A stretch of 64,000 nt of DNA from Nannocystis bainbridge (GTDB lineage Bacteria > Myxococcota_A > Polyangia > Nannocystales > Nannocystaceae), in assembly GCF_028368995.1 (NCBI RefSeq), contig NZ_JAQNDL010000002.1, positions 1,152,001 through 1,216,000 of the forward strand. The letters are read 5' to 3'. Each line of letters opens with the position of its first letter. The first letter of the stretch is position 1. The notes under the pieces are model-generated. The model did not search any database, was not told where the DNA came from, and saw only the letters and a list, made by a program, of their open reading frames with translations. Below are positions 28,373-36,641 of this stretch, piece by piece. Position numbers and translations under genes: made by a program.

Positions 28373-29119
28373 CTACGGTCCGCGCGCGACCAGCAGGCCG
28401 TCGGCGACCAGGCCGGCCAGCAGCTCGTCGGCCTCGTGCGGCTCGGCGCCCAGGCGCACCGCCTCGGCCGTCAGCTCGGCGCGCGGGCGGCCGTCGCCAG
28501 CGAATTGAAGCAAGCGGACGAGCGGTTCGCTGGCTGTCCCGAGAGACACCTCGCCGCCGGGGCCGGCCTCGACCAGCAGCGGCTCGCGGTCGGGCCCGCG
28601 GGGCGGCTTCTCGCGTGCGGAGCGGGCGGTCGCCAGGGTCGTCGCGGGGTCGGGCCCGAGGCGGGCGCGCATGCGCTCGAGGCAGGCGAGGCTGCCTTTC
28701 GGGACCCGCAGCGGGGCCACGCATGGGTTGCACGCCAGGCCCTCGCCGGCGCCGGGGCGCGGGCGGCGGGCGTGGGCGATCGCCGCTTCGATCCGGCCTG
28801 GGCCACCGGCCTGTCCTCCGAGCCATGTCCCGAAGGACATGGCCATCGAACCATGTTCGAACACGCAGGTGCGGAACGCCGCCGACGAGAAGAACGCGTC
28901 GACCGCCGGCACGCCGAGCAGCGCCGCCGTGGCCGGGTACTCCTCGAGCAGGGCGTGCACGGCCCGGGCGCGGCGGTACGGATCGACGGTCAGGGCCCGG
29001 GGGTCGACGGCGCGCAGCAGCGACCGCTCGCGCTCGGCCAGCTCGGGCAGCGGCCCGGCGCCGCGCACCGCCGCGGCGTAGGCGGGGTCGAGGTGCATGC
29101 AGACGAGCGCGGCCTGCAC
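28373..29119 (-). CDS. Putative MNIO partner protein (DUF2063/HvfC-like position)
   Basis: Directly downstream of DUF692 (possible CTG start at 29143 overlapping its stop); LLEEYPATAALLG segment and C-terminal wHTH-like ADELLAGLVADGLLV. Confidence 0.6.
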   Translation of the reverse strand: MQAALVCMHLDPAYAAAVRGAGPLPELAERERSLLRAVDPRALTVDPYRRARAVHALLEEYPATAALLGVPAVDAFFSSAAFRTCVFEHGSMAMSFGTWLGGQAGGPGRIEAAIAHARRPRPGAGEGLACNPCVAPLRVPKGSLACLERMRARLGPDPATTLATARSAREKPPRGPDREPLLVEAGPGGEVSLGTASEPLVRLLQFAGDGRPRAELTAEAVRLGAEPHEADELLAGLVADGLLVARGP

Positions 29120-29139
29120 GCGGCGAGGGTCGAGGCGGC

Positions 29140-30021
29140 TCAGGCGGCCTCCGGGCCGCGCGCGGGCCACAGCGCGGCCACGCGGTCGAACAGCGGCAGC
29201 ACGGCGTCGATCGGGTTGCGCTCGCACTCGACGACGATCGAGCGCAGGTTGACCGCGCGCCGGGCCGCCTCGTTGGCGATGTCCCAGGTGTCCGGGAGGA
29301 CCTCCGTGCCGTGATCGTCCTCGACCCACGCGAGCCCGGCGGTGTCGTGGACGCGACCGCCGGCGACGTGCAGCTCGACCACGCGGTCCCACGGGAACCC
29401 GTCGAAGCCGGTCCGCGGGGCGTGGCCGCGGGCCCGCTGGAACATGGCCAGGTGGGCGCAGTCGAGCAGCAGCCCGGTGTCGGCGCGCTCGGCGACGCGG
29501 GCGAAGAAGTCGAGCAGGTGCATGTCGCCGACGAACGCGGCGCCCGGCGGGTTCTCGGGCAGCACCTCGAGGCCGGTCGCCTCGCGCAGCGCCTGCAGGC
29601 CGTCAGCCAGCGGCCCGATCGCCTCCTCGACGAGGATCGGCGGCAGCAGCAGCATGTGCCCGCGGTCGCGGCGGCCGAGGTGCCACAGCCCGGCGTCGCC
29701 GCACAGCCACGCCGGCCGCAGCTCGCCGGCGATCGTGCGCACGGCGGCCAGCCACTCGGGGTCGAAGTCTTCGGGCTCGTCGAGGTTGATGTCGAGGAAG
29801 TGGTAGGTGGTGGGCAGGCCGGCGGCGGCCCACGCCCGCGCGTCGTCGTCGAGGCCCTTGACGACCTCGACGCCGACCTCGAGGAAGCCGGCGCAGTCGG
29901 GCCGGCGCCGCCGCAGCTCGAGCGGGTCGAGCGCGCCGTCCTGGCGCCGCGCGCCGTACTCGGTGCTGACGCCGAGGCCGAGGCGCGGCAGGGCGCGGAC
30001 GCGGTCGAGGAAGTCGGGCAT
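29140..30021 (-). CDS. DUF692 / multinuclear non-heme iron oxidase (MNIO; MbnB/TglH family)
   Basis: LGLGV, FLEV, YHFLDINL, LLLPP, PENPP, GLLLDCAHL, VELHVAGG, EDDH, IVVECER. Confidence 0.88.
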   Translation of the reverse strand: MPDFLDRVRALPRLGLGVSTEYGARRQDGALDPLELRRRRPDCAGFLEVGVEVVKGLDDDARAWAAAGLPTTYHFLDINLDEPEDFDPEWLAAVRTIAGELRPAWLCGDAGLWHLGRRDRGHMLLLPPILVEEAIGPLADGLQALREATGLEVLPENPPGAAFVGDMHLLDFFARVAERADTGLLLDCAHLAMFQRARGHAPRTGFDGFPWDRVVELHVAGGRVHDTAGLAWVEDDHGTEVLPDTWDIANEAARRAVNLRSIVVECERNPIDAVLPLFDRVAALWPARGPEAA

Positions 30022-30085
30022 TCGGGACAGGTCCGTGAGAACATGTCCGATCGGGCAGGTCCTCAAGGACATGCCCGTTCGGACA
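30016..30085. repeat. Phased 14-bp element array between the GST and MNIO genes
   Basis: GGGCAttcgGGACA GGTCCgtgaGAACA TGTCCgatcGGGCA GGTCCtcaaGGACA TGCCCgttcGGACA. Confidence 0.85.
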
Positions 30086-30096
30086 TGGCAGATCGG

Positions 30097-30720
30097 TCAG
30101 CCGGCTTCGACCGCGCGGTTGGCCGGGCGGCTGACGCAGCGCTCGATCCACGCGCCGACGGCCGGGTAGGCGGCGATGTCGGTCTTGATGAAGCTCAGGG
30201 CCCAGGCGAGCGCCGCGGCGTTCGCGGCGTCGACGAGGGTGAAGCCGCTGCCGACCAGGTACTCGCGGCCCTGCAGGCGCTGGTCGAGGACCTTGAGCGC
30301 GGCCTCGAACTCCTTGGTGGCGGCCTCGGCCTGGAGGGCGTTGCGCGAGTCGGCGGGGAACCACTCGCTGGTGTTGAAGAAGATGCGGAAGATGGTGCCG
30401 CCGAGGGTGACCGAGCCCCACACGCTCCACGACAGCGCCTCGGCGTACTCGCTGGAGCCGACGCGCGGCCACAGGCCCTTGTCGACGCCGAAGCGGTCGC
30501 CGAGGTAGAGGATGATCGCCAGCGACTCGAACAACGGGGTGCCGTCGACGACCAGCGCGGGCACCTTGCCGTTGGGGTTGATGGCCAGGAATTCGGGCTT
30601 GTGCTGGTCGCCGGCGCGGAGGTCCAGCTTGACCTTGTCGTAAGGGACGCCGAGCTCCTCGAGGACCCAGTGGACGCGTGAGGCGCTCGTGTGGGGGGTG
30701 TAATAGAACGTGATCGACAT
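30097..30720 (-). CDS. Glutathione S-transferase family protein
   Basis: RVHWVLEELGVPY, INPNGKVPAL, LFESLAIILYL, YLVGSGFTLVD. Confidence 0.95.
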   Translation of the reverse strand: MSITFYYTPHTSASRVHWVLEELGVPYDKVKLDLRAGDQHKPEFLAINPNGKVPALVVDGTPLFESLAIILYLGDRFGVDKGLWPRVGSSEYAEALSWSVWGSVTLGGTIFRIFFNTSEWFPADSRNALQAEAATKEFEAALKVLDQRLQGREYLVGSGFTLVDAANAAALAWALSFIKTDIAAYPAVGAWIERCVSRPANRAVEAG

Positions 30721-30795
30721 GGGGCCTGGTCTCCGCGGGTTATGTACGCGATCGGGCGGCGCAGGGGTAGGCGAGCGCAGCGGTCGGGGCTCGGG

Positions 30796-32673
30796 TCAGG
30801 TGGGGATGCAGTGGACCAGCAGCCACTGGTTGCTGGTGCCGGGGCCGATCTCGCGGCGCTCGAGCGCTTCGAGGCGCAGGTCGAGCGCGGCGGCGGCGGC
30901 CTCGATCCGCCGGACGGCCGCGGCCGCGTCGTCGTTGCGGTAGTGCTCGCGGCGGGCGCTCGAGCGCTCGCCGCGGGTGGTCTGCGCCGGCGTGCGAGCC
31001 AGGCCGAACGCTGTGTTGTCGCAGACGACGAGCACGCCGCCGGGCCGCAGTCGCGACAGGGCCGTGACGAGCACGCGATCGGGGTCGCGCAGGTGGTTGT
31101 AGCTGCGCAGGATCGTGACGGCGTCGAAGCGGCGTTCGCCGAGCTCGAGCGCCTCGGCGTCGCCGCGCTCGAGCGTCGCGCCGGGCGGCAGGCGGGCGCG
31201 CAGGCGGGTCAGCGCGGCCTCGTCGGGGTCGACGCCGGTGTAGCGGATCCCGCCGGCGGCGATCCGCGGGGCCAGGACCTCGAGGTAGGGCGCGTCGCCG
31301 CAGCCGAGGTCGAGGACGTCGCCGACGAGCGCGGCGAGGCGGGCGCGCACGGCCGCGTCGTCGCGGGTAAAGATGTCCTCGAAGACAGGTTCGAACATCC
31401 CCGTGCACGCGGAGAAGTGCGGGCAGCCGGCGCACAGCGGGCTGCGGGTCAGCGGCACCAGCTCGCGGGCGAAGTCCTGCGGCGCCGGACCGCGGGCGGC
31501 GTCGACGTAGACCTGGCCGAGGTCGTGCTTGACCGCGGCGATCTCCTCGTCGGTGAAGTCGCGGGTGTCGGCGCGGTAGCGGGCGATCGCGGCGCCGCGG
31601 CGGACGAACAGGTGACGGCCGCGCTCCCACGGGGTGACGCCGAGCGGCCCCTGTCGCAAGGGACAGGTGCCCTCGGCGGCCTCGTGCACCGCCTCGAGCG
31701 TGTAGTTGAAGGAGTTGGCGCGCGGGCGATCGGTGACCGGGCGCAGCTCGCCGGCGCCGTGGACCTCGTGGTAGCCGCGGTAGAGCCCGGGGCAGCCGCC
31801 GCGCAGGCTGCAGCCGTCGCAGGCCGGCGGGTGGCGCTTGTTGTCGTCGTCGACCGGGAACAGGTCGGGCTCGCCGATCTCGACCATGGTCCAGTAGCGG
31901 TGGCTGCGGAGGTCGCTGTAGCTGTCCTCGAGGCCAGGTACGAGGCAGCGTGGGATGCCGCCGTGCTGGACCCGGACGCCGCGCTCGCGGGCGTGCGCGG
32001 CGGCGGCGACGACGGCCTCGGCGACGGCGGCGACCCGCGGGACCAGCAGCTCGAAGTTGCGGGCCGCGCCGCCTTTGGGCTCGACCATCGAGAACTTGAG
32101 GGTGACGCCGGCGAACCCGGCGACGAGGTCGACGAGGCCGCGCAGGTGGGCGACGTTCTGGCGGGTGACGACGCAGTTGACGGTGAGGTCGAGGTCGCGG
32201 CCGGCGAGGTTGCGCAGGGCGGCCACGGCCTGATCGAAGGCGTCGCTGCGGACCAGGCGGTTGTGCACCGGGGCGCTGCCGCCGTGCAGCGAGAGGTAGA
32301 CGTAGCGCAGGCGGTGGGCGAGGAGCTTGTCGGTGAGCTCGGGGTAGGCGAGCGCGCGGCCGTTGGTGACGAGGCCGAGGTCGAGGCCGAGGTCGGCGAT
32401 CCGCGCGGCCCAGCGGAGCAGCTCGGGCCGGATCGTCGGCTCGCCGCCGGACAGGACGACCATGCTGTGTCCGAGCTCGGCGGCGCGGAGGATCTTGCGC
32501 TCGACCTCCTCGGCGTCGCCGTCGATCGGGCGCACATCGAGCGTGTGACAAAAGGTGCAGTGCTCGTTGCAGCCGTAGCCGACCTTGATCAGCGCCTTGT
32601 AGTCGCCGGGCTGGAGCCTCGGGGGCCGCGGGGGCCGCGGGCCGGCCCATGCGGGGTGGGAGCGATCGTCCAT
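30796..32673 (-). CDS. Radical SAM enzyme fused to a C-terminal class I SAM methyltransferase
   Basis: CNEHCTFC, SGGEPTI, VTNG, SLHG, two CX2CX5C motifs (CDGCSLRGGCPG, CAGCPHFSACTG), VLDLGCGDAPY, SYNHLRDP. Confidence 0.9.
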   Translation of the reverse strand: MDDRSHPAWAGPRPPRPPRLQPGDYKALIKVGYGCNEHCTFCHTLDVRPIDGDAEEVERKILRAAELGHSMVVLSGGEPTIRPELLRWAARIADLGLDLGLVTNGRALAYPELTDKLLAHRLRYVYLSLHGGSAPVHNRLVRSDAFDQAVAALRNLAGRDLDLTVNCVVTRQNVAHLRGLVDLVAGFAGVTLKFSMVEPKGGAARNFELLVPRVAAVAEAVVAAAAHARERGVRVQHGGIPRCLVPGLEDSYSDLRSHRYWTMVEIGEPDLFPVDDDNKRHPPACDGCSLRGGCPGLYRGYHEVHGAGELRPVTDRPRANSFNYTLEAVHEAAEGTCPLRQGPLGVTPWERGRHLFVRRGAAIARYRADTRDFTDEEIAAVKHDLGQVYVDAARGPAPQDFARELVPLTRSPLCAGCPHFSACTGMFEPVFEDIFTRDDAAVRARLAALVGDVLDLGCGDAPYLEVLAPRIAAGGIRYTGVDPDEAALTRLRARLPPGATLERGDAEALELGERRFDAVTILRSYNHLRDPDRVLVTALSRLRPGGVLVVCDNTAFGLARTPAQTTRGERSSARREHYRNDDAAAAVRRIEAAAAALDLRLEALERREIGPGTSNQWLLVHCIPT

Positions 32674-32734
32674 GCGCGGCGCCGATGCTATCGCGTCCTC
32701 GCGGCGCTCGGCAGCGAGGGCTCGCGTAAAAGTC

Positions 32735-32836
32735 GGGGGCCGAGGTCGCAGCGGCGATGGGGGCGTGAGGGCGGCGAGGGCTCACGCACCACCTCGGGGC
32801 CGAGGGTCGCGGCGGTGGTGGGGGCGTGAGGGCGGC
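32735..32836. repeat. About 41-bp direct repeat (60-bp period) in the divergent intergenic region
   Basis: ggggccgag(g)gtcgc(a/g)gcgg..tgggggcgtgagggcggc present twice. Confidence 0.65.
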
Positions 32837-32852
32837 CGGCGCCCGGGTCGCC

Positions 32853-32882
32853 TTGACGCAGGCTGTGGGGGGCGGGTACGTT
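32853..32882 (+). promoter_or_regulatory. Putative sigma70-type promoter for the right arm of the radical SAM cluster
   Basis: TTGACG-18bp-TACGTT, with the same -10 hexamer as the lon promoter. Confidence 0.4.
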
Positions 32883-32904
32883 GGCTCCGATCAGGAACGA
32901 CTGC

Positions 32905-33393
32905 ATGAAGTCTTCGCCGCGTGTCGCTCGTCGCAAGGTCCTCGCCGTCCTCGGAGTCGCCGCTGCCGGCGTGTCGACCGCGGTGTGCACGCTCCGCCCG
33001 CGCACGACGGCCCCGTCGTCCGCGGCGCCGCTGGCCGGTCTGGTCGGGCCGCTCGGCGAGTGGCGCGTCGAGCAGGTGCTGCCGCTGGTCGCAGGCGCGG
33101 TGCCGGTGCTGATGCGCACCCCCGCGGGCCAGAAGTTCCAGGTCGATCTGCTGCGCGCCGAGGACGAAGGGCCCCGCGCGGTCGCCCAGGCGGGCGGGCT
33201 GGCGCTGTACCTCGCCAACGGCGGCGCGGGCGACCGGCCGTCGACCGCGGTCGAGGAGCAGGGCGCCCGGGCGCTGGCGCAGCGGCTGGCGCAGCTGGCG
33301 AGCGAGCGCGGGGCGCCGGCGATCCCCGGGCTGCTGACGCTGTCCGAGCGGCTGGCGTCGCACCGCCAGGCCGTGCTGACGCCGTGGGCCTGA
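32905..33393 (+). CDS. Hypothetical protein with a Tat-like signal
   Basis: ARRKVLAVLGVAAAG twin-Arg plus hydrophobic stretch; GC3-rich codons. Confidence 0.7.
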   Translation: MKSSPRVARRKVLAVLGVAAAGVSTAVCTLRPRTTAPSSAAPLAGLVGPLGEWRVEQVLPLVAGAVPVLMRTPAGQKFQVDLLRAEDEGPRAVAQAGGLALYLANGGAGDRPSTAVEEQGARALAQRLAQLASERGAPAIPGLLTLSERLASHRQAVLTPWA

Positions 33394-33413
33394 GCGGCGC
33401 CGCGGCGAGGCCC

Positions 33414-33579
33414 TGTCTGGAGGGACAGGGCGTTCGGGACATGTCGTATGGGGCAGGTGCGAAAGGTCCTGTCCGAACGGACAGGGCGCTGCGAACATGG
33501 CGCGAGGGACAGAGCGCCTGTTTGAAAGGACAGGCGTGGTGCGTGGTGCGTGAGGCAGGAGCGCCTGTCCGAAGGGACA
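33414..33579. repeat. Long phased 14-bp element array (7 contiguous units plus 2 more)
   Basis: TGTCTggagGGACA...TGTCCgaacGGACA...TGGCGcgagGGACA (33414-33511), TGTTTgaaaGGACA (33519), TGTCCgaagGGACA (33566). Confidence 0.85.
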
Positions 33580-33580
33580 G

Positions 33581-34426
33581 GTGGATGTGAGCCTGGCGGG
33601 CGTCGAGCCGGCGAGCGCGGACGGCCAGAGCGCTCTCGCGGCGCTCGTGCGCGCGGGCGGCGGGACGCTGACGCTGGCGGGGGCCGAGGTGCCGGTGCTC
33701 GCGGCCTGGGCTGCGGCGGCGCGGGCGGCCGGGTTCGCGCGCGTGTGGGTCGCGGCAGGGCCGGCGGGGCTGACGGCGGAGGCGCTCGCGGGGCTCGCGG
33801 GCGCGGGGCTGGGCGGGCTGCGGCTGCGACTGTACGCGGCCGAGGCGGCGGCGCACGACTACCACGCCGGTCACGAGGGATCGTTCCGGGCCACGCTGGG
33901 GACGGCCCGGGCGGCCCGGGCGGCGCGGCTGCCGGTGACGGTGACGACGCCGCTGACGCGCTCCAATTCGCGGGTGATGGCGGCGCTGCCGGGGCTGCTC
34001 GCGGACATCGGCGCGCTCGGGTGGCAGGTAGCGACGGTGGCGGCGGGCGGCTCGGCGAACCACGGGGCGGTGGCGCCGCGGCTGGCGGTCGCGCTGCCCT
34101 ACGCGCTGCAGGCGATGGTGGCGGCGGAGCGCGTCGGTCTGTTGGCCGCGATCGCCGGGGCGCCGCTGTGCTTGCTCGGGCCGCTGCGCGATCGCTCGGT
34201 GGCGACGCCGGTGCGGGCGTTCGCCGACGCGTGCAGCGGTTGTGCGCTGCGGCCGGGCTGTCCGGGGCTCGACGCCGCGTACCTGGGCCGCTTCGGCGCG
34301 GGCGAGCTGGTGCCGGTGACGCAGGGCGGGGGGCCGGTGGCGAGCGGCGCGCGGTCGATGAAACTCCGGGACATGTTCTCGGGGCCATGGCTCGAGCTGT
34401 CGGAGGGCCCGTGCTGGCCGATCTGA
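33581..34426 (+). CDS. Radical SAM-fold homolog lacking the CX3CX2C motif, with a C-terminal CX2CX5C
   Basis: AHDYHAGHEGSFRATL, PLTRSN, PLCLLG, CSGCALRPGCPG; in-frame stop at 33551 rules out an upstream cluster motif. Confidence 0.7.
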   Translation: MDVSLAGVEPASADGQSALAALVRAGGGTLTLAGAEVPVLAAWAAAARAAGFARVWVAAGPAGLTAEALAGLAGAGLGGLRLRLYAAEAAAHDYHAGHEGSFRATLGTARAARAARLPVTVTTPLTRSNSRVMAALPGLLADIGALGWQVATVAAGGSANHGAVAPRLAVALPYALQAMVAAERVGLLAAIAGAPLCLLGPLRDRSVATPVRAFADACSGCALRPGCPGLDAAYLGRFGAGELVPVTQGGGPVASGARSMKLRDMFSGPWLELSEGPCWPI

Positions 34427-35577
34427 CGCTGCCGGATTTCGGCTCGGACACGGCGCGCGGGCTGTTCTCGATGGCGCTGCGGCGGGCGCTGACGGAGCTC
34501 GTGCGGCTGCCCGCGGGGCCGGGGCCGAACGGGGCGGCGTGGGGGCGGTTTGCGCCCGAGCTGCGGCGGATCGCCGGGCGAGCGCCGGGGGCTCTTGCGA
34601 GCGCGGTGCGACGGCCGACGATCGGGACGCTGATCCGCTGCCTGCGCGGGCGGCCCGACCCGGCGCTGCAGGGCGAGCTGCTGGCGACGCTGGCGCTCGA
34701 GCTGGCGGTGGCGGGTGTGCTCGAGGACAGGTGCGTCGTGCCGCAGCCGCCGGCCGAGGTGCTGTGCCTGGCCGCGCGCTGCGCCCTGCGGCCGCCGCCG
34801 GGCCCGCTGACGATCGGGCCGGGCGGGTGGCAGGCGGGCGGGGTCGGCGGGGCGATCGCAGAGGACTTCGGGACATGTGCTTCGGAGCATGTCGTGAAGG
34901 ACATGTACGAGAGCGTCGCGGGGCCGGTCGCGCTGGCGCTGCGGCGCGACAACAACCCGCTGGCGCAGCTCGAGGCGCACCCCGACAAGTCGGGCAGTGG
35001 GCTCGATCTCGGGGGGCAGCCGGTCGCGGCCTGGGTGGCGGGGCTGCGCGCGGGGCTCGAGCAAATCGCGGCGCACCTGCCGGGGCTGCGGGCAGAGCTC
35101 GACGTCGGGCTGTCGCTGATCGTGCCGGTCGGTCACGACCGAGAACGGCACCTGTCGGCGTCGTACCAGGAGGCGATCGGGACGGTCTACCTGAGCCTGC
35201 ACCCGAGCGCGCTCACCCTGGCGGAGGCGCTGATCCACGAGTTCTCGCACAACAAGCTCCACGCGCTGCTCGAGCAGGGGCCGCTGCTCGAGAACGCCTG
35301 GTCGCCGCTGTACGCCTCGCCGGTGCGGCCCGACCCGCGGCCGCTGCACGGGGTGCTGCTGGCGGCCCACGCGTTCCTGCCGGTGGCGGCGATGCTCGAG
35401 TCGATGCTGTCCTCCGGGACAGGCGAGGTCGAGGGCCGGCTGCAGCAGGTGGCGCGCGGCAACCACGAGGCGGTCGAGACGCTGCGGCTGCACGCGCGGC
35501 CGACGGCCCTGGGGGCGCCGCTGCTGGCCGAGATGACGCGGCTCGACGATCGCTTCCGGCGCTGGTGGGAGGGCTGA
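34411..35577 (+). CDS. HExxH-motif peptide-modifying protein (alphaKG-HExxH beta-hydroxylase-like)
   Basis: SASYQEAIGTVYLS, LAEALIHEFSHNKLH, YASPVRPDPRPLHGVLLAAHAF; GTG start overlaps the upstream gene. Confidence 0.85.
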   Translation: MLADLTLPDFGSDTARGLFSMALRRALTELVRLPAGPGPNGAAWGRFAPELRRIAGRAPGALASAVRRPTIGTLIRCLRGRPDPALQGELLATLALELAVAGVLEDRCVVPQPPAEVLCLAARCALRPPPGPLTIGPGGWQAGGVGGAIAEDFGTCASEHVVKDMYESVAGPVALALRRDNNPLAQLEAHPDKSGSGLDLGGQPVAAWVAGLRAGLEQIAAHLPGLRAELDVGLSLIVPVGHDRERHLSASYQEAIGTVYLSLHPSALTLAEALIHEFSHNKLHALLEQGPLLENAWSPLYASPVRPDPRPLHGVLLAAHAFLPVAAMLESMLSSGTGEVEGRLQQVARGNHEAVETLRLHARPTALGAPLLAEMTRLDDRFRRWWEG

Positions 35578-35578
35578 G

Positions 35579-36508
35579 GTGCCGGGGCTGCTCGACATGA
35601 TCCTCGGCTACGACTGCAACCTGTGGTGCGACTACTGCACGATCGGTCCGGAGCTGCGCGGGCGGGCGATGTCGACGGCGCACGCGCTGGCGTCGCTGCG
35701 GCAGGGGCGGGCGCAGGGGCTCGACGCGCTGTCGCTCACGGGCGGCGAGCCGACGATCCGCCCCGACCTGCTGACGATCGTGCGCGCCGGTCGGACGCTC
35801 GGGTTCGTCGACATCAAGGTGCAGTCGAACGGGCTGATGTACGCGCACGGCGACAACCTGGCGCGGCTGCTCGCGGCCGGGGCGACGCGGCTGCATGTGT
35901 CGGTGCACACCCACCGGGCCGACCGCTACGAGCAGCTGGTCCGAAGGACAGGTACGTACGCGGCCATGGTCGGCGGGCTGCAGCGGGCGGTCGAGAGCGG
36001 GGCGGCGCTGGTCGTCGACCTGATCGTCAAGCGCGATACGATGGCCGACCTGCCGGCGGCGATCGAGTGGCTGGGCGAGCTCGGGGTGCGCGCGGTCGAC
36101 CTCTGGTACGTGTCGCTGACCGACGCCAACGCGGCCCACCCCGAGTCGCTGCCGCGCATGACCGAGGCGCTGCCGTTCGTGAAGGAGGCGCTGGCGCGCG
36201 GGCGCGAGCAGGCGATGACGCTGCGCTCGCTGCACGTGCCGCGCTGTCTGTTGGGTGAGGATCATCCGCACGCGTGGGACCCCGGCGCCGACGAGGTGGT
36301 GGTGGTGACGCCGGAGGCCACGTTCGCGCTGAAGGACAGCCGCCTGGCCGGGCGGGTCAAGGTGCCGGCGTGCGCGGGCTGTCCTTTCGAGCAGGTCTGT
36401 CCGGGCGTGCGGCCGGACTACCTGGCGCGCTTCGGCGACGGCGAGATCGCGGCGGCGCGCGGACAAGCGGCCTCGCGCGGACCGACGCACCTGCCGATCG
36501 CGCCGTGA
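35579..36508 (+). CDS. Radical SAM enzyme (HxsC-like) with C-terminal CX2CX5C
   Basis: CNLWCDYC, TGGEPTIR, VQSNG, PRCLLG, CAGCPFEQVCPG. Confidence 0.9.
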   Translation: MPGLLDMILGYDCNLWCDYCTIGPELRGRAMSTAHALASLRQGRAQGLDALSLTGGEPTIRPDLLTIVRAGRTLGFVDIKVQSNGLMYAHGDNLARLLAAGATRLHVSVHTHRADRYEQLVRRTGTYAAMVGGLQRAVESGAALVVDLIVKRDTMADLPAAIEWLGELGVRAVDLWYVSLTDANAAHPESLPRMTEALPFVKEALARGREQAMTLRSLHVPRCLLGEDHPHAWDPGADEVVVVTPEATFALKDSRLAGRVKVPACAGCPFEQVCPGVRPDYLARFGDGEIAAARGQAASRGPTHLPIAP

Positions 36509-36510
36509 GG

Positions 36511-36641
36511 CGCGCGGGCAGGGGGCGACCGACCGAGCGCGCCATGACGACGCGCGGGCAGGGGGCGACCGACCGAGCGCGCCATGACGACGCGCGGGCA
36601 GGGGGCGACCGACCGAGCGCGCCATGACGACGCGCGGGCAG
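36511..36641. repeat. Perfect 40-bp tandem repeat, 3.25 copies
   Basis: cgcgcgggcagggggcgaccgaccgagcgcgccatgacga x3, followed by a duplicated gggccgactctgctgccgat (36652, 36694). Confidence 0.95.

Follow-up and report, generated by a model that had tools for sequence, protein, structure and literature searches.

The HXS system is an antiphage defence system comprising HxsA, HxsB, HxsC and HxsD (Nat Commun 2026, PMC13128918). According to this study, HxsA is processed by HxsB, HxsC and HxsD while still in the cytoplasm, ahead of its appearance in the periplasm, these three proteins introduce a +8 Da change specifically at an SHRSS motif of HxsA, and the matured effector blocks phage DNA entry; 99.7% of the HXS systems belong to Pseudomonadota (PMC13128918). 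Here we analyze a locus of eight genes, denoted A to H (positions 28373-36508), in a 64-kb window, i.e., the whole stretch of DNA from Nannocystis bainbridge that was examined (contig NZ_JAQNDL010000002.1, positions 1,152,001 to 1,216,000; this contig is denoted C3 below). The locus probably consists of two independent modules lying side by side, one formed by E, A, F, G and H and the other by C and D. The first of these would be the Nannocystis portion of an expanded form of the type-4 His-Xaa-Ser system, with HxsA4 as the precursor, and the second would be a stand-alone TglHI-like pair of an MNIO oxidase and its partner, with a substrate encoded elsewhere.

A literature search finds the HXS system treated only in the 2026 study and its preprint, and finds no paper that uses the names HxsA4, HxsC4 or HxsA2. 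HxsA4 (NF038313), HxsC4 (NF038332, named 'rare'), HxsB and HxsD are already named in NCBIfam, and the genome's own HxsA4 and HxsC4 proteins pass the respective models. The cyclophane pathways of Morishita et al. 2024, which produce peptides that are synthesized by ribosomes and modified after translation (RiPPs), reportedly encode a radical S-adenosylmethionine (SAM) enzyme and an alpha-ketoglutarate (aKG)-HExxH hydroxylase together, and their SPASM cyclophane-forming radical SAM enzyme is said to be fused to the hydroxylase; unlike in those pathways, the hydroxylase of the window, G, stands alone among HxsC-like paralogs. The eight genes, in window coordinates, are:

D, 28373-29119, minus strand, 248 aa: MNIO partner protein with a TglI/DUF2063-like fold (predicted model)
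C, 29140-30072, minus strand, 310 aa: MNIO/DUF692 oxidase, PF05114; translation may actually begin at the Met near 30021
B, 30097-30720, minus strand, 207 aa: glutathione S-transferase (GST), GST_N 69 bits and GST_C 48 bits
A, 30796-32673, minus strand, 625 aa: three-part fusion: HxsC-like radical SAM domain, middle domain, SAM methyltransferase
E, 32905-33393, plus strand, 162 aa: protein with a twin-arginine translocation (Tat) signal, with a lipobox-like Cys in the Nannocystis copies; Myxococcota family without annotation
F, 33581-34426, plus strand, 281 aa: degenerate F-type HxsC-like radical SAM homolog
G, 34387-35577, plus strand, 396 aa: aKG-HExxH-type peptide beta-hydroxylase, TIGR04267
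H, 35579-36508, plus strand, 309 aa: HxsC-like radical SAM enzyme with an intact CxxxCxxC motif

The reading frames were picked by third-position GC in DNA with a G+C content of 70-78%, and with this support the eight genes fill the interval given above. The Pfam and NCBIfam scans agree with the gene content and families (MNIO, GST, radical SAM, HExxH, methyltransferase) listed in a preliminary description that was made from the sequence alone. The proposal in that description of one pathway comprising all eight genes fails its own co-occurrence test and is not supported: outside Nannocystis, none of the 75 further MNIO loci and none of the 17 loci that encode E or the HExxH enzyme has C-D beside the other six.

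The C protein matches the MNIO profile PF05114 with 74 bits (cut-off 25), remains below the cut-offs of the named MNIO equivalogs (BufB, 63 against 310 bits; ApyH, 59 against 400; HvfB, 45 against 360), and has chain D of the TglH structure 8hci as its nearest solved chain (8hci_D, E 5.6e-5). The adjacent protein D shows no Pfam, NCBIfam or PDB sequence match. A Foldseek search started with its AlphaFold model (predicted local distance difference test, pLDDT, 94) places TglI (8hi7_A, 8hci_A) and the DUF2063 protein 3dee in the top rows, with probability 1.00, E 0.011-0.014 and TM scores of 0.44-0.56 over 228-276 aligned columns; the next row has an E-value of 0.46, and the sequence identity between D and TglI is 13-16%. 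Judged by this model, D is predicted to be a TglI/DUF2063-type partner encoded beside an MNIO gene. The pair thus resembles TglH and TglI of the 3-thiaglutamate pathway (PDB 8hci, 8hi7), in that C is nearest to TglH, the model of D is best matched by TglI, and the two genes are adjacent, but differs from that pathway in that no precursor gene is found beside C-D and no neighbor is conserved across 75 loci. A survey of MNIO enzymes (PMC12452194) contains, in passages of its main text, no mention of Myxococcota or of a link to radical SAM genes. The genome also encodes four other, distant MNIO paralogs (contigs C1, C2 and C3; loci L002-L005) that are 24-34% identical to C.

Orthologs of C, with 45-93% identity, were identified in 80 loci in a scan of one genome per species, and their hosts are Nannocystis, Enhygromyxa, other Myxococcota, Eisenbacteria, Planctomycetota and Blastocatellia. 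In 57 of these loci, tblastn detects D behind C; the neighbors of C-D differ from locus to locus, and all-against-all clustering of the open reading frames (ORFs) of the 80 loci reveals no conserved family besides the MNIO and its partner. The B gene is present in five of these loci (L006-L010), all from Nannocystis. All eight genes, with the same SPFH and UvrA flanks, are found only in four Nannocystis species (L006-L009; tblastn, 80 C loci), with L009 belonging to Nannocystis exedens DSM 71; the fifth locus, L010, on a 3.9-kb Nannocystis contig, contains A, B, C and a cut E, with weak matches (29-30%) to F and H inside the A gene. The remaining 75 loci lack B, E, F, G and H, except for one weak, generic match to H in L016, and three of them contain weak and generic matches to A. 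No conserved small precursor ORF is detectable upstream of C in the upstream ORF lists of 20 loci or in the gene maps of six loci filtered by third-position GC, and the window gene upstream of C is the GST rather than a precursor.

The distribution of C among genomes, which like all genome-presence counts given here is based on 401 sampled Myxococcota genomes, is close to independent of that of the other genes. C is present in 66 genomes, of which 23 also contain E and 37 contain neither E nor G; conversely, 50 genomes with both E and G lack C. In family f23, C is present in 0 of 29 genomes and E in 27 of 29, and in G210, a relative from the same family as the window genome, C lies approximately 350 kb from the E gene. 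C-D is a self-contained pair, separate from the other genes.

The other five genes behave differently from C-D. The E family is represented in 84 genomes (profile search) and homologs of G, most of them near full length, in 91; 71 genomes encode both, 20 only G, 13 only E and 297 neither. In the 17 gene-mapped loci that were chosen because E or G is present, there are one to seven HxsC-like radical SAM genes in every locus and no homolog of B, C or D in any. In six of these loci (L164-L169), E is followed by a radical SAM protein of approximately 500 residues, HxsB (504 bits against the cut-off of 370 for the one tested, from L166), and a protein of approximately 150 residues encoded between E and HxsB, identified in four loci by BLAST clustering, is HxsD (64.8 bits against 50 in L166). 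A six-frame search detects ORFs with His-Xaa-Ser repeats in 8 of the 17 loci, directly after HxsB in six; their products consist of a leader without a signal peptide followed by (His-Gly-Ser)n and, in most cases, a terminal Trp, and all five repeat peptides tested pass the HxsA4 model (82.6-118 bits against 55). The order E, HxsD, HxsB, HxsA4, and then several HxsC-like radical SAM genes is found in L166 and L169, and the other four HxsB loci keep the order E, HxsB, repeat peptide; in 5 of the 6 HxsB loci, an HExxH gene is located nearby. Homologs of E, of the F-type radical SAM protein and of G are found together with HxsD, HxsB and HxsA4 in L164-L169. At the genome level, HxsB is present in 144 genomes. 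It accompanies E in 80 of 84 genomes and G in 85 of 91, but C in only 28 of 66. E, the A-, F- and H-type radical SAM proteins and G belong to a gene set that is widespread in Myxococcota. The gene neighborhood comparison recommended in the preliminary description does bring up a co-occurring small ORF, the HxsA4 repeat ORF of the eight loci, and finds none beside the MNIO gene. In two of the type-4 loci (L166 and L167, from genomes G157 and G302), genes for a DUF502 membrane protein and an ABC-F ATPase lie inside the string of radical SAM genes.

In the genome of N. bainbridge, the corresponding components are encoded outside the window, at the following positions:

HxsA4, C3:1242055-1242315: 87 residues with nine His-Gly-Ser repeats, 82.6 bits (cut-off 55), 53 kb from the cluster
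HxsC4, C3:1241034-1242062: 609.6 bits (cut-off 500), adjoining HxsA4, 53 kb from the cluster
HxsD-HxsB pair, C3:1603685-1605776: 56.8 bits (cut-off 50) and 573.7 bits (cut-off 370), same contig, 415 kb from the cluster

The window itself contains neither HxsB nor HxsD, and no His-Xaa-Ser repeat ORF is present in any frame of its 64 kb. The earlier observation that no precursor is visible thus holds for the window in a six-frame search and does not hold for the genome, in which HxsA4 lies 53 kb away; the accompanying suggestion that the substrate might be encoded elsewhere is borne out by this gene. In the Nannocystis HxsA4, which has no signal sequence and no Cys, about 55 leader residues precede (His-Gly-Ser)9 and a terminal Trp. 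In HxsA4 of most other taxa (L164-L168, L175), a single Cys is located just before the repeats (QHCSHGSHG), at the position of an Ala in the Nannocystis peptide (GHASHGSHG; L185:6055-6315). The HxsB of the C3 pair, beside which no HxsC or HxsA is found, shares 39-45% identity with the E-linked HxsB of other taxa and 38% with the genome's second HxsB. A comparable dispersal is seen in G210, where HxsC4 and HxsB are adjacent and E is 52 kb away. With respect to membership in type 4, HxsA4, HxsB and HxsD are thus all present in the genome outside the window, the HxsC4 model is not passed by any window protein, and the window genes share a locus with HXS genes in L164-L169 and not here.

A separate locus on contig C2 (C2:1612788-1616384, L184) has the canonical order and encodes HxsD, HxsB (608 bits), HxsC (390 bits against 268) and an HxsA-like protein of 217 residues with a signal peptide and HRS/HSS repeats, which reaches only 28 bits with the HxsA model (cut-off 122). 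This locus adjoins a gene for a Cys-rich membrane protein of 733 residues.

The type-4 set resembles HXS (PMC13128918) in that HxsB- and HxsC-type radical SAM proteins and the small HxsD protein would act on a His-Xaa-Ser substrate, with predicted cytoplasmic maturation and a periplasmic end point. It differs from HXS in several respects. The window contains none of the four defining genes, and its radical SAM proteins are distant paralogs; HxsA4 is short and, unlike canonical HxsA, has neither a signal peptide nor a peptidoglycan-binding domain; and E, the HExxH hydroxylase, the methyltransferase and the 3-7 radical SAM paralogs are not part of HXS as presented in the text passages of PMC13128918. 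The canonical gene order HxsD-B-C-A with an HxsA effector is absent from the window, which has no His-Xaa-Ser repeat ORF and in which E fails the TIGR03979 model. PADLOC 2023 returns only generic matches to viperin-like radical SAM proteins and to methyltransferases. Neither NCBIfam nor Pfam has a model for E, or one that covers any of the other scanned radical SAM paralogs above its cut-off. The preliminary description knew of no characterized pathway that combines all these families; the E/A/F/G/H part, which C-D does not join, does match the type named HxsA4/HxsC4 in the database. As far as the searches show, the E family, its link to the TIGR04267 hydroxylase and the methyltransferase, the large number of radical SAM paralogs and the dead F protein are undescribed so far.

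The three radical SAM proteins of the window are related to HxsC4 to different degrees. The A protein matches PF04055 (82 bits) and Methyltransf_25 (56 bits), H matches PF04055 (67 bits), and F shows only weak radical SAM/SPASM matches of no more than 38 bits. HxsC4 is the best NCBIfam match of A, the second-best match of H and a weak match of F, with scores of 100.2, 74.1 and 21.9 bits, respectively, none of which passes the cut-off of 500 bits. Both A and H contain the radical SAM CxxxCxxC motif (CNEHCTFC in A and CNLWCDYC in H) and GGE. In F, the absence of CxxxCxxC agrees with the earlier reading of this protein as a radical SAM homolog without its cluster motif; none of the 5 Nannocystis sequences has CxxxCxxC, GGE or QTNG, and all 8 orthologs in other genera retain these motifs. 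The ratio of nonsynonymous to synonymous substitution rates (dN/dS, estimated by NG86, with absolute values inflated by strong codon bias) is the highest in the cluster for F, at 0.50-0.74, compared with 0.45-0.60 for B, 0.16-0.40 for A, C, D, E, G and H (0.17-0.28 for H) and 0.12-0.31 for the flanking genes.

In a quick tree of the radical SAM proteins, which has long branches, F pairs with its G210 ortholog (Shimodaira-Hasegawa-like approximate likelihood ratio test, SH-aLRT, 96), the F-type clade has A's radical SAM domain as its sister (SH-aLRT 87), and H joins the clade of L123_2-1957 (SH-aLRT 85), the placements with support of 85-87 being weak. An identification of A with the radical SAM proteins of about 600 residues from other loci was rejected, as that clade (14 rows, SH-aLRT 96) includes no window member. 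The part of A that comprises the middle domain and the methyltransferase (residues ~264-620) exists as a separate protein encoded next to E in L171, and such a separate protein is also found near the position of E in L170 and L172 (from residues 269-386). In L174, a BLAST comparison with the gene calls places a match to residues 318-619 downstream of E, and in a metagenome scan with a narrower E alignment, which yielded four loci, the methyltransferase-half protein is encoded beside E in 2 of the 3 longer loci (tblastn). These gene neighborhoods indicate that E and the A-type methyltransferase are linked, so that the divergent arrangement of A and E in the window looks ancestral. The A protein itself looks like a fusion of an F-type paralog with the methyltransferase-half protein, and such a fusion would explain the freedom of F to decay.

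The E protein, which is encoded by a single gene in this genome, as is G, has a twin-arginine N-terminus followed by a hydrophobic stretch. The Tat signal noted in the preliminary description is supported by the family alignment, in which no fewer than 90% of the 29 rows retain the RR pair and many have the sequence RRxF(L/I/M); on this signal motif, E is predicted to be a Tat-exported protein. The invariant residues in the alignments are G64, N105, G107, G109 and R149. No Pfam or NCBIfam match is found for E, and all its named database homologs are 'hypothetical'. In the structural model, the core, a beta-sheet packed on a long helix, has a pLDDT above 90, with the invariant N-x-G-x-G loop as its only low-confidence stretch. 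A Foldseek search against PDB gives no row at E <=0.001; the wide VIA-align search gives Mdm12 as the best match (Z 6.3) and several lipid-binding TULIP-like rows with Z 4-6, all below the level regarded as meaningful for this tool; and ESM Atlas places E in an unnamed Myxococcota cluster (0.78). Complex predictions for E and F yield scores of 0.01, 0.56 and 0.01, which speak neither for nor against an interaction. The possibility that E is a disguised HxsA was considered and rejected: there is no TIGR03979 match, and the repeats are on a separate peptide.

The G protein matches TIGR04267 with 99 bits (cut-off 40) over residues 221-383 and contains the motif HEFSH. In 16 loci with G homologs, taken with about 9 kb on each side, HxsC-like radical SAM genes are found near G in four, and three loci (L123, L127, L128) also encode an E homolog of 166-171 residues with a textbook twin-arginine signal. 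Among loci from other Myxococcota (L170-L172, L175; L123, L127, L128, L163), those with E additionally encode very large secreted proteins of 570-2009 aa, one of which (from L175) was scanned and shows MopE-type metal-binding motifs; proteins of 462-636 aa are encoded beside the HExxH gene, and the one scanned (L123) gives a weak match to an acidic double-disulfide repeat. Such large secreted or HExxH-adjacent proteins are possible alternative substrates of the hydroxylase.

By analogy with the characterized HXS system, the following scheme can be proposed for the first of the two modules. HxsD, HxsB and HxsC4 would perform the core radical SAM maturation of the HxsA4 repeat in the cytoplasm, A and H would introduce further radical chemistry on the repeat peptide, the methyltransferase domain of A would methylate it, and G would hydroxylate a beta-carbon using O2 and 2-oxoglutarate. 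F would be a paralog devoid of catalytic activity, its task having been taken over by A, and may persist as a scaffold. E would be the only exported component, handling or anchoring the product outside the cytoplasm and supplying the signal peptide and the anchoring domain that canonical HxsA itself carries; as a best guess, it would serve the matured peptide as a carrier or anchor that is attached to lipid in the periplasm. In Nannocystis, C-D and the GST would have been inserted downstream of A.

Several observations weigh against this two-module interpretation. The HXS components are 53 and 415 kb from the cluster here, and their link to the window genes rests on other genomes. The canonical HXS locus on C2 could account for the presence of HxsB in this genome. 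A, F and H are, by their profile scores, paralogs of HxsC4 rather than members, and the HxsC4 cut-off is passed in 2 of the 5 E-positive genomes tested, compared with 0 of 5 E-negative, HxsB-positive ones. As the genomes of a single phylum are kin, the co-occurrence counts overstate independence. Finally, A, B, C and D may be co-transcribed, which leaves room for a functional link between the two modules. A look for RNA data listed no RNA data set, and showed only shares of 0.05-0.08 in six metagenome runs.

A different role for E, which we regard as unlikely, is that E itself is the substrate of the radical SAM enzymes and the hydroxylase, e.g., at the N-x-G-x-G loop, and is exported by Tat after modification, with HxsA4 as a parallel or unrelated substrate. 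E is indeed the conserved non-enzyme partner of G (71 shared genomes) and is usually the first gene of the operon; Tat export suits proteins completed in the cytoplasm and would fit a protein finished there; the loop with the invariant N105, G107 and G109 stands out by its low confidence from a core that is otherwise confidently modeled; and TIGR04267 enzymes, as the name of the model states, act on peptide chains. However, 8 of the 17 loci also encode HxsA4, a precursor with a leader and repeats that is the expected substrate, and E has no repeats, no conserved Cys and no Ser/His motif comparable to the SHRSS site of HxsA reported in PMC13128918.

A further proposal, made tentatively and with a low probability, is that E is the export half of a split HxsA. 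Up to seven radical SAM enzymes, the hydroxylase and the methyltransferase would mature HxsA4 in the cytoplasm, after which it would be bound or covalently joined to folded E and exported by Tat 'hitchhiking', so that the Nannocystis pair would end as a lipid-anchored periplasmic effector. If this is true, the Myxococcota type-4 system would be a two-polypeptide version of the HXS defence effector, and a RiPP-like peptide would be exported on a Tat carrier.

It appears rather improbable that the locus encodes one Nannocystis-specific pathway, in which the MNIO pair and the GST have been recruited to the HXS-type pathway and share their substrate, HxsA4 or E, with the radical SAM enzymes and the hydroxylase. 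The A-D genes have the same orientation, are 20-75 nt apart and show no terminator-like site between them, and the arrangement is kept in four Nannocystis species, with dN/dS of 0.16-0.40 for all genes but B and F, as would suit a single pathway; however, synteny within a genus and identical flanks are expected from vertical descent alone. Further arguments against it are that C-D occurs without the other genes in 75 of 80 loci, that 37 of 66 C-positive genomes contain neither E nor G, and that in G210 C and E are about 350 kb apart. Moreover, MNIOs of the TglH and MbnB types usually act on Cys, which the Nannocystis HxsA4 lacks. That the right arm is a decaying remnant whose function was lost after the type-4 HXS genes scattered is very improbable: the loss of all catalytic motifs and the dN/dS of 0.50-0.74 in F, and the dispersal of the system over 415 kb, would suit decay, but the frames of E, G, H and A are open in five Nannocystis sequences with dN/dS of 0.17-0.40, similar to that of the flanking SPFH gene (0.20-0.31), and A, G and H retain their catalytic motifs.

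The flanks of the cluster are unrelated to it and consist of genes for Trk potassium transport, a methyl-accepting chemotaxis protein (MCP)-like protein and two SPFH proteins on one side and UvrA on the other. Two intergenic regions within the cluster contain repeats:

A/E divergent intergenic region, 32674-32904: contains a 43-nt direct repeat
E/F gap, 33394-33580: four tandem repetitive extragenic palindrome (REP)-like palindromes, CCTGTCC-N4-GGACAGG

The two copies of the 43-nt repeat (32733-32775 and 32794-32836) are 84% identical and 61 nt apart, and are a possible binding site of a regulator; no sigma-70-like promoter is found in the A/E intergenic region. The tandem palindromes between E and F could form RNA hairpins that set the ratio of the E transcript to that of the enzymes. 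With up to two mismatches allowed, the window contains 25 copies of the REP-like palindrome C[CA]TGTCC-N4-GGACA[GT]G, against 0.34 expected by chance, and the 11-Mb genome contains 616 near-exact copies. That such palindromes are inserted in frame into D and G was considered and abandoned, as the stretch concerned in D is conserved in orthologs. A perfect 40-nt tandem repeat with at least three copies (36511-36641) is located directly after the stop codon of H, before UvrA.

Taken together, these results correct the reading of the locus as one hybrid RiPP pathway and point to the position of the precursor. They define an expanded form of the His-Xaa-Ser system that is common in Myxococcota, with E in at least 84 of the 401 genomes, approximately one fifth, and that adds a Tat-exported family without annotation, an O2-dependent hydroxylase, a methyltransferase and extra radical SAM paralogs. 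The Nannocystis arrangement provides a natural set of strains, a type strain among them, with both modules, and the orphan MNIO pair C-D is the remaining substrate problem. If the expanded form is a defence system, HXS would be widened beyond Pseudomonadota; if it is not, the same chemistry would serve another purpose.

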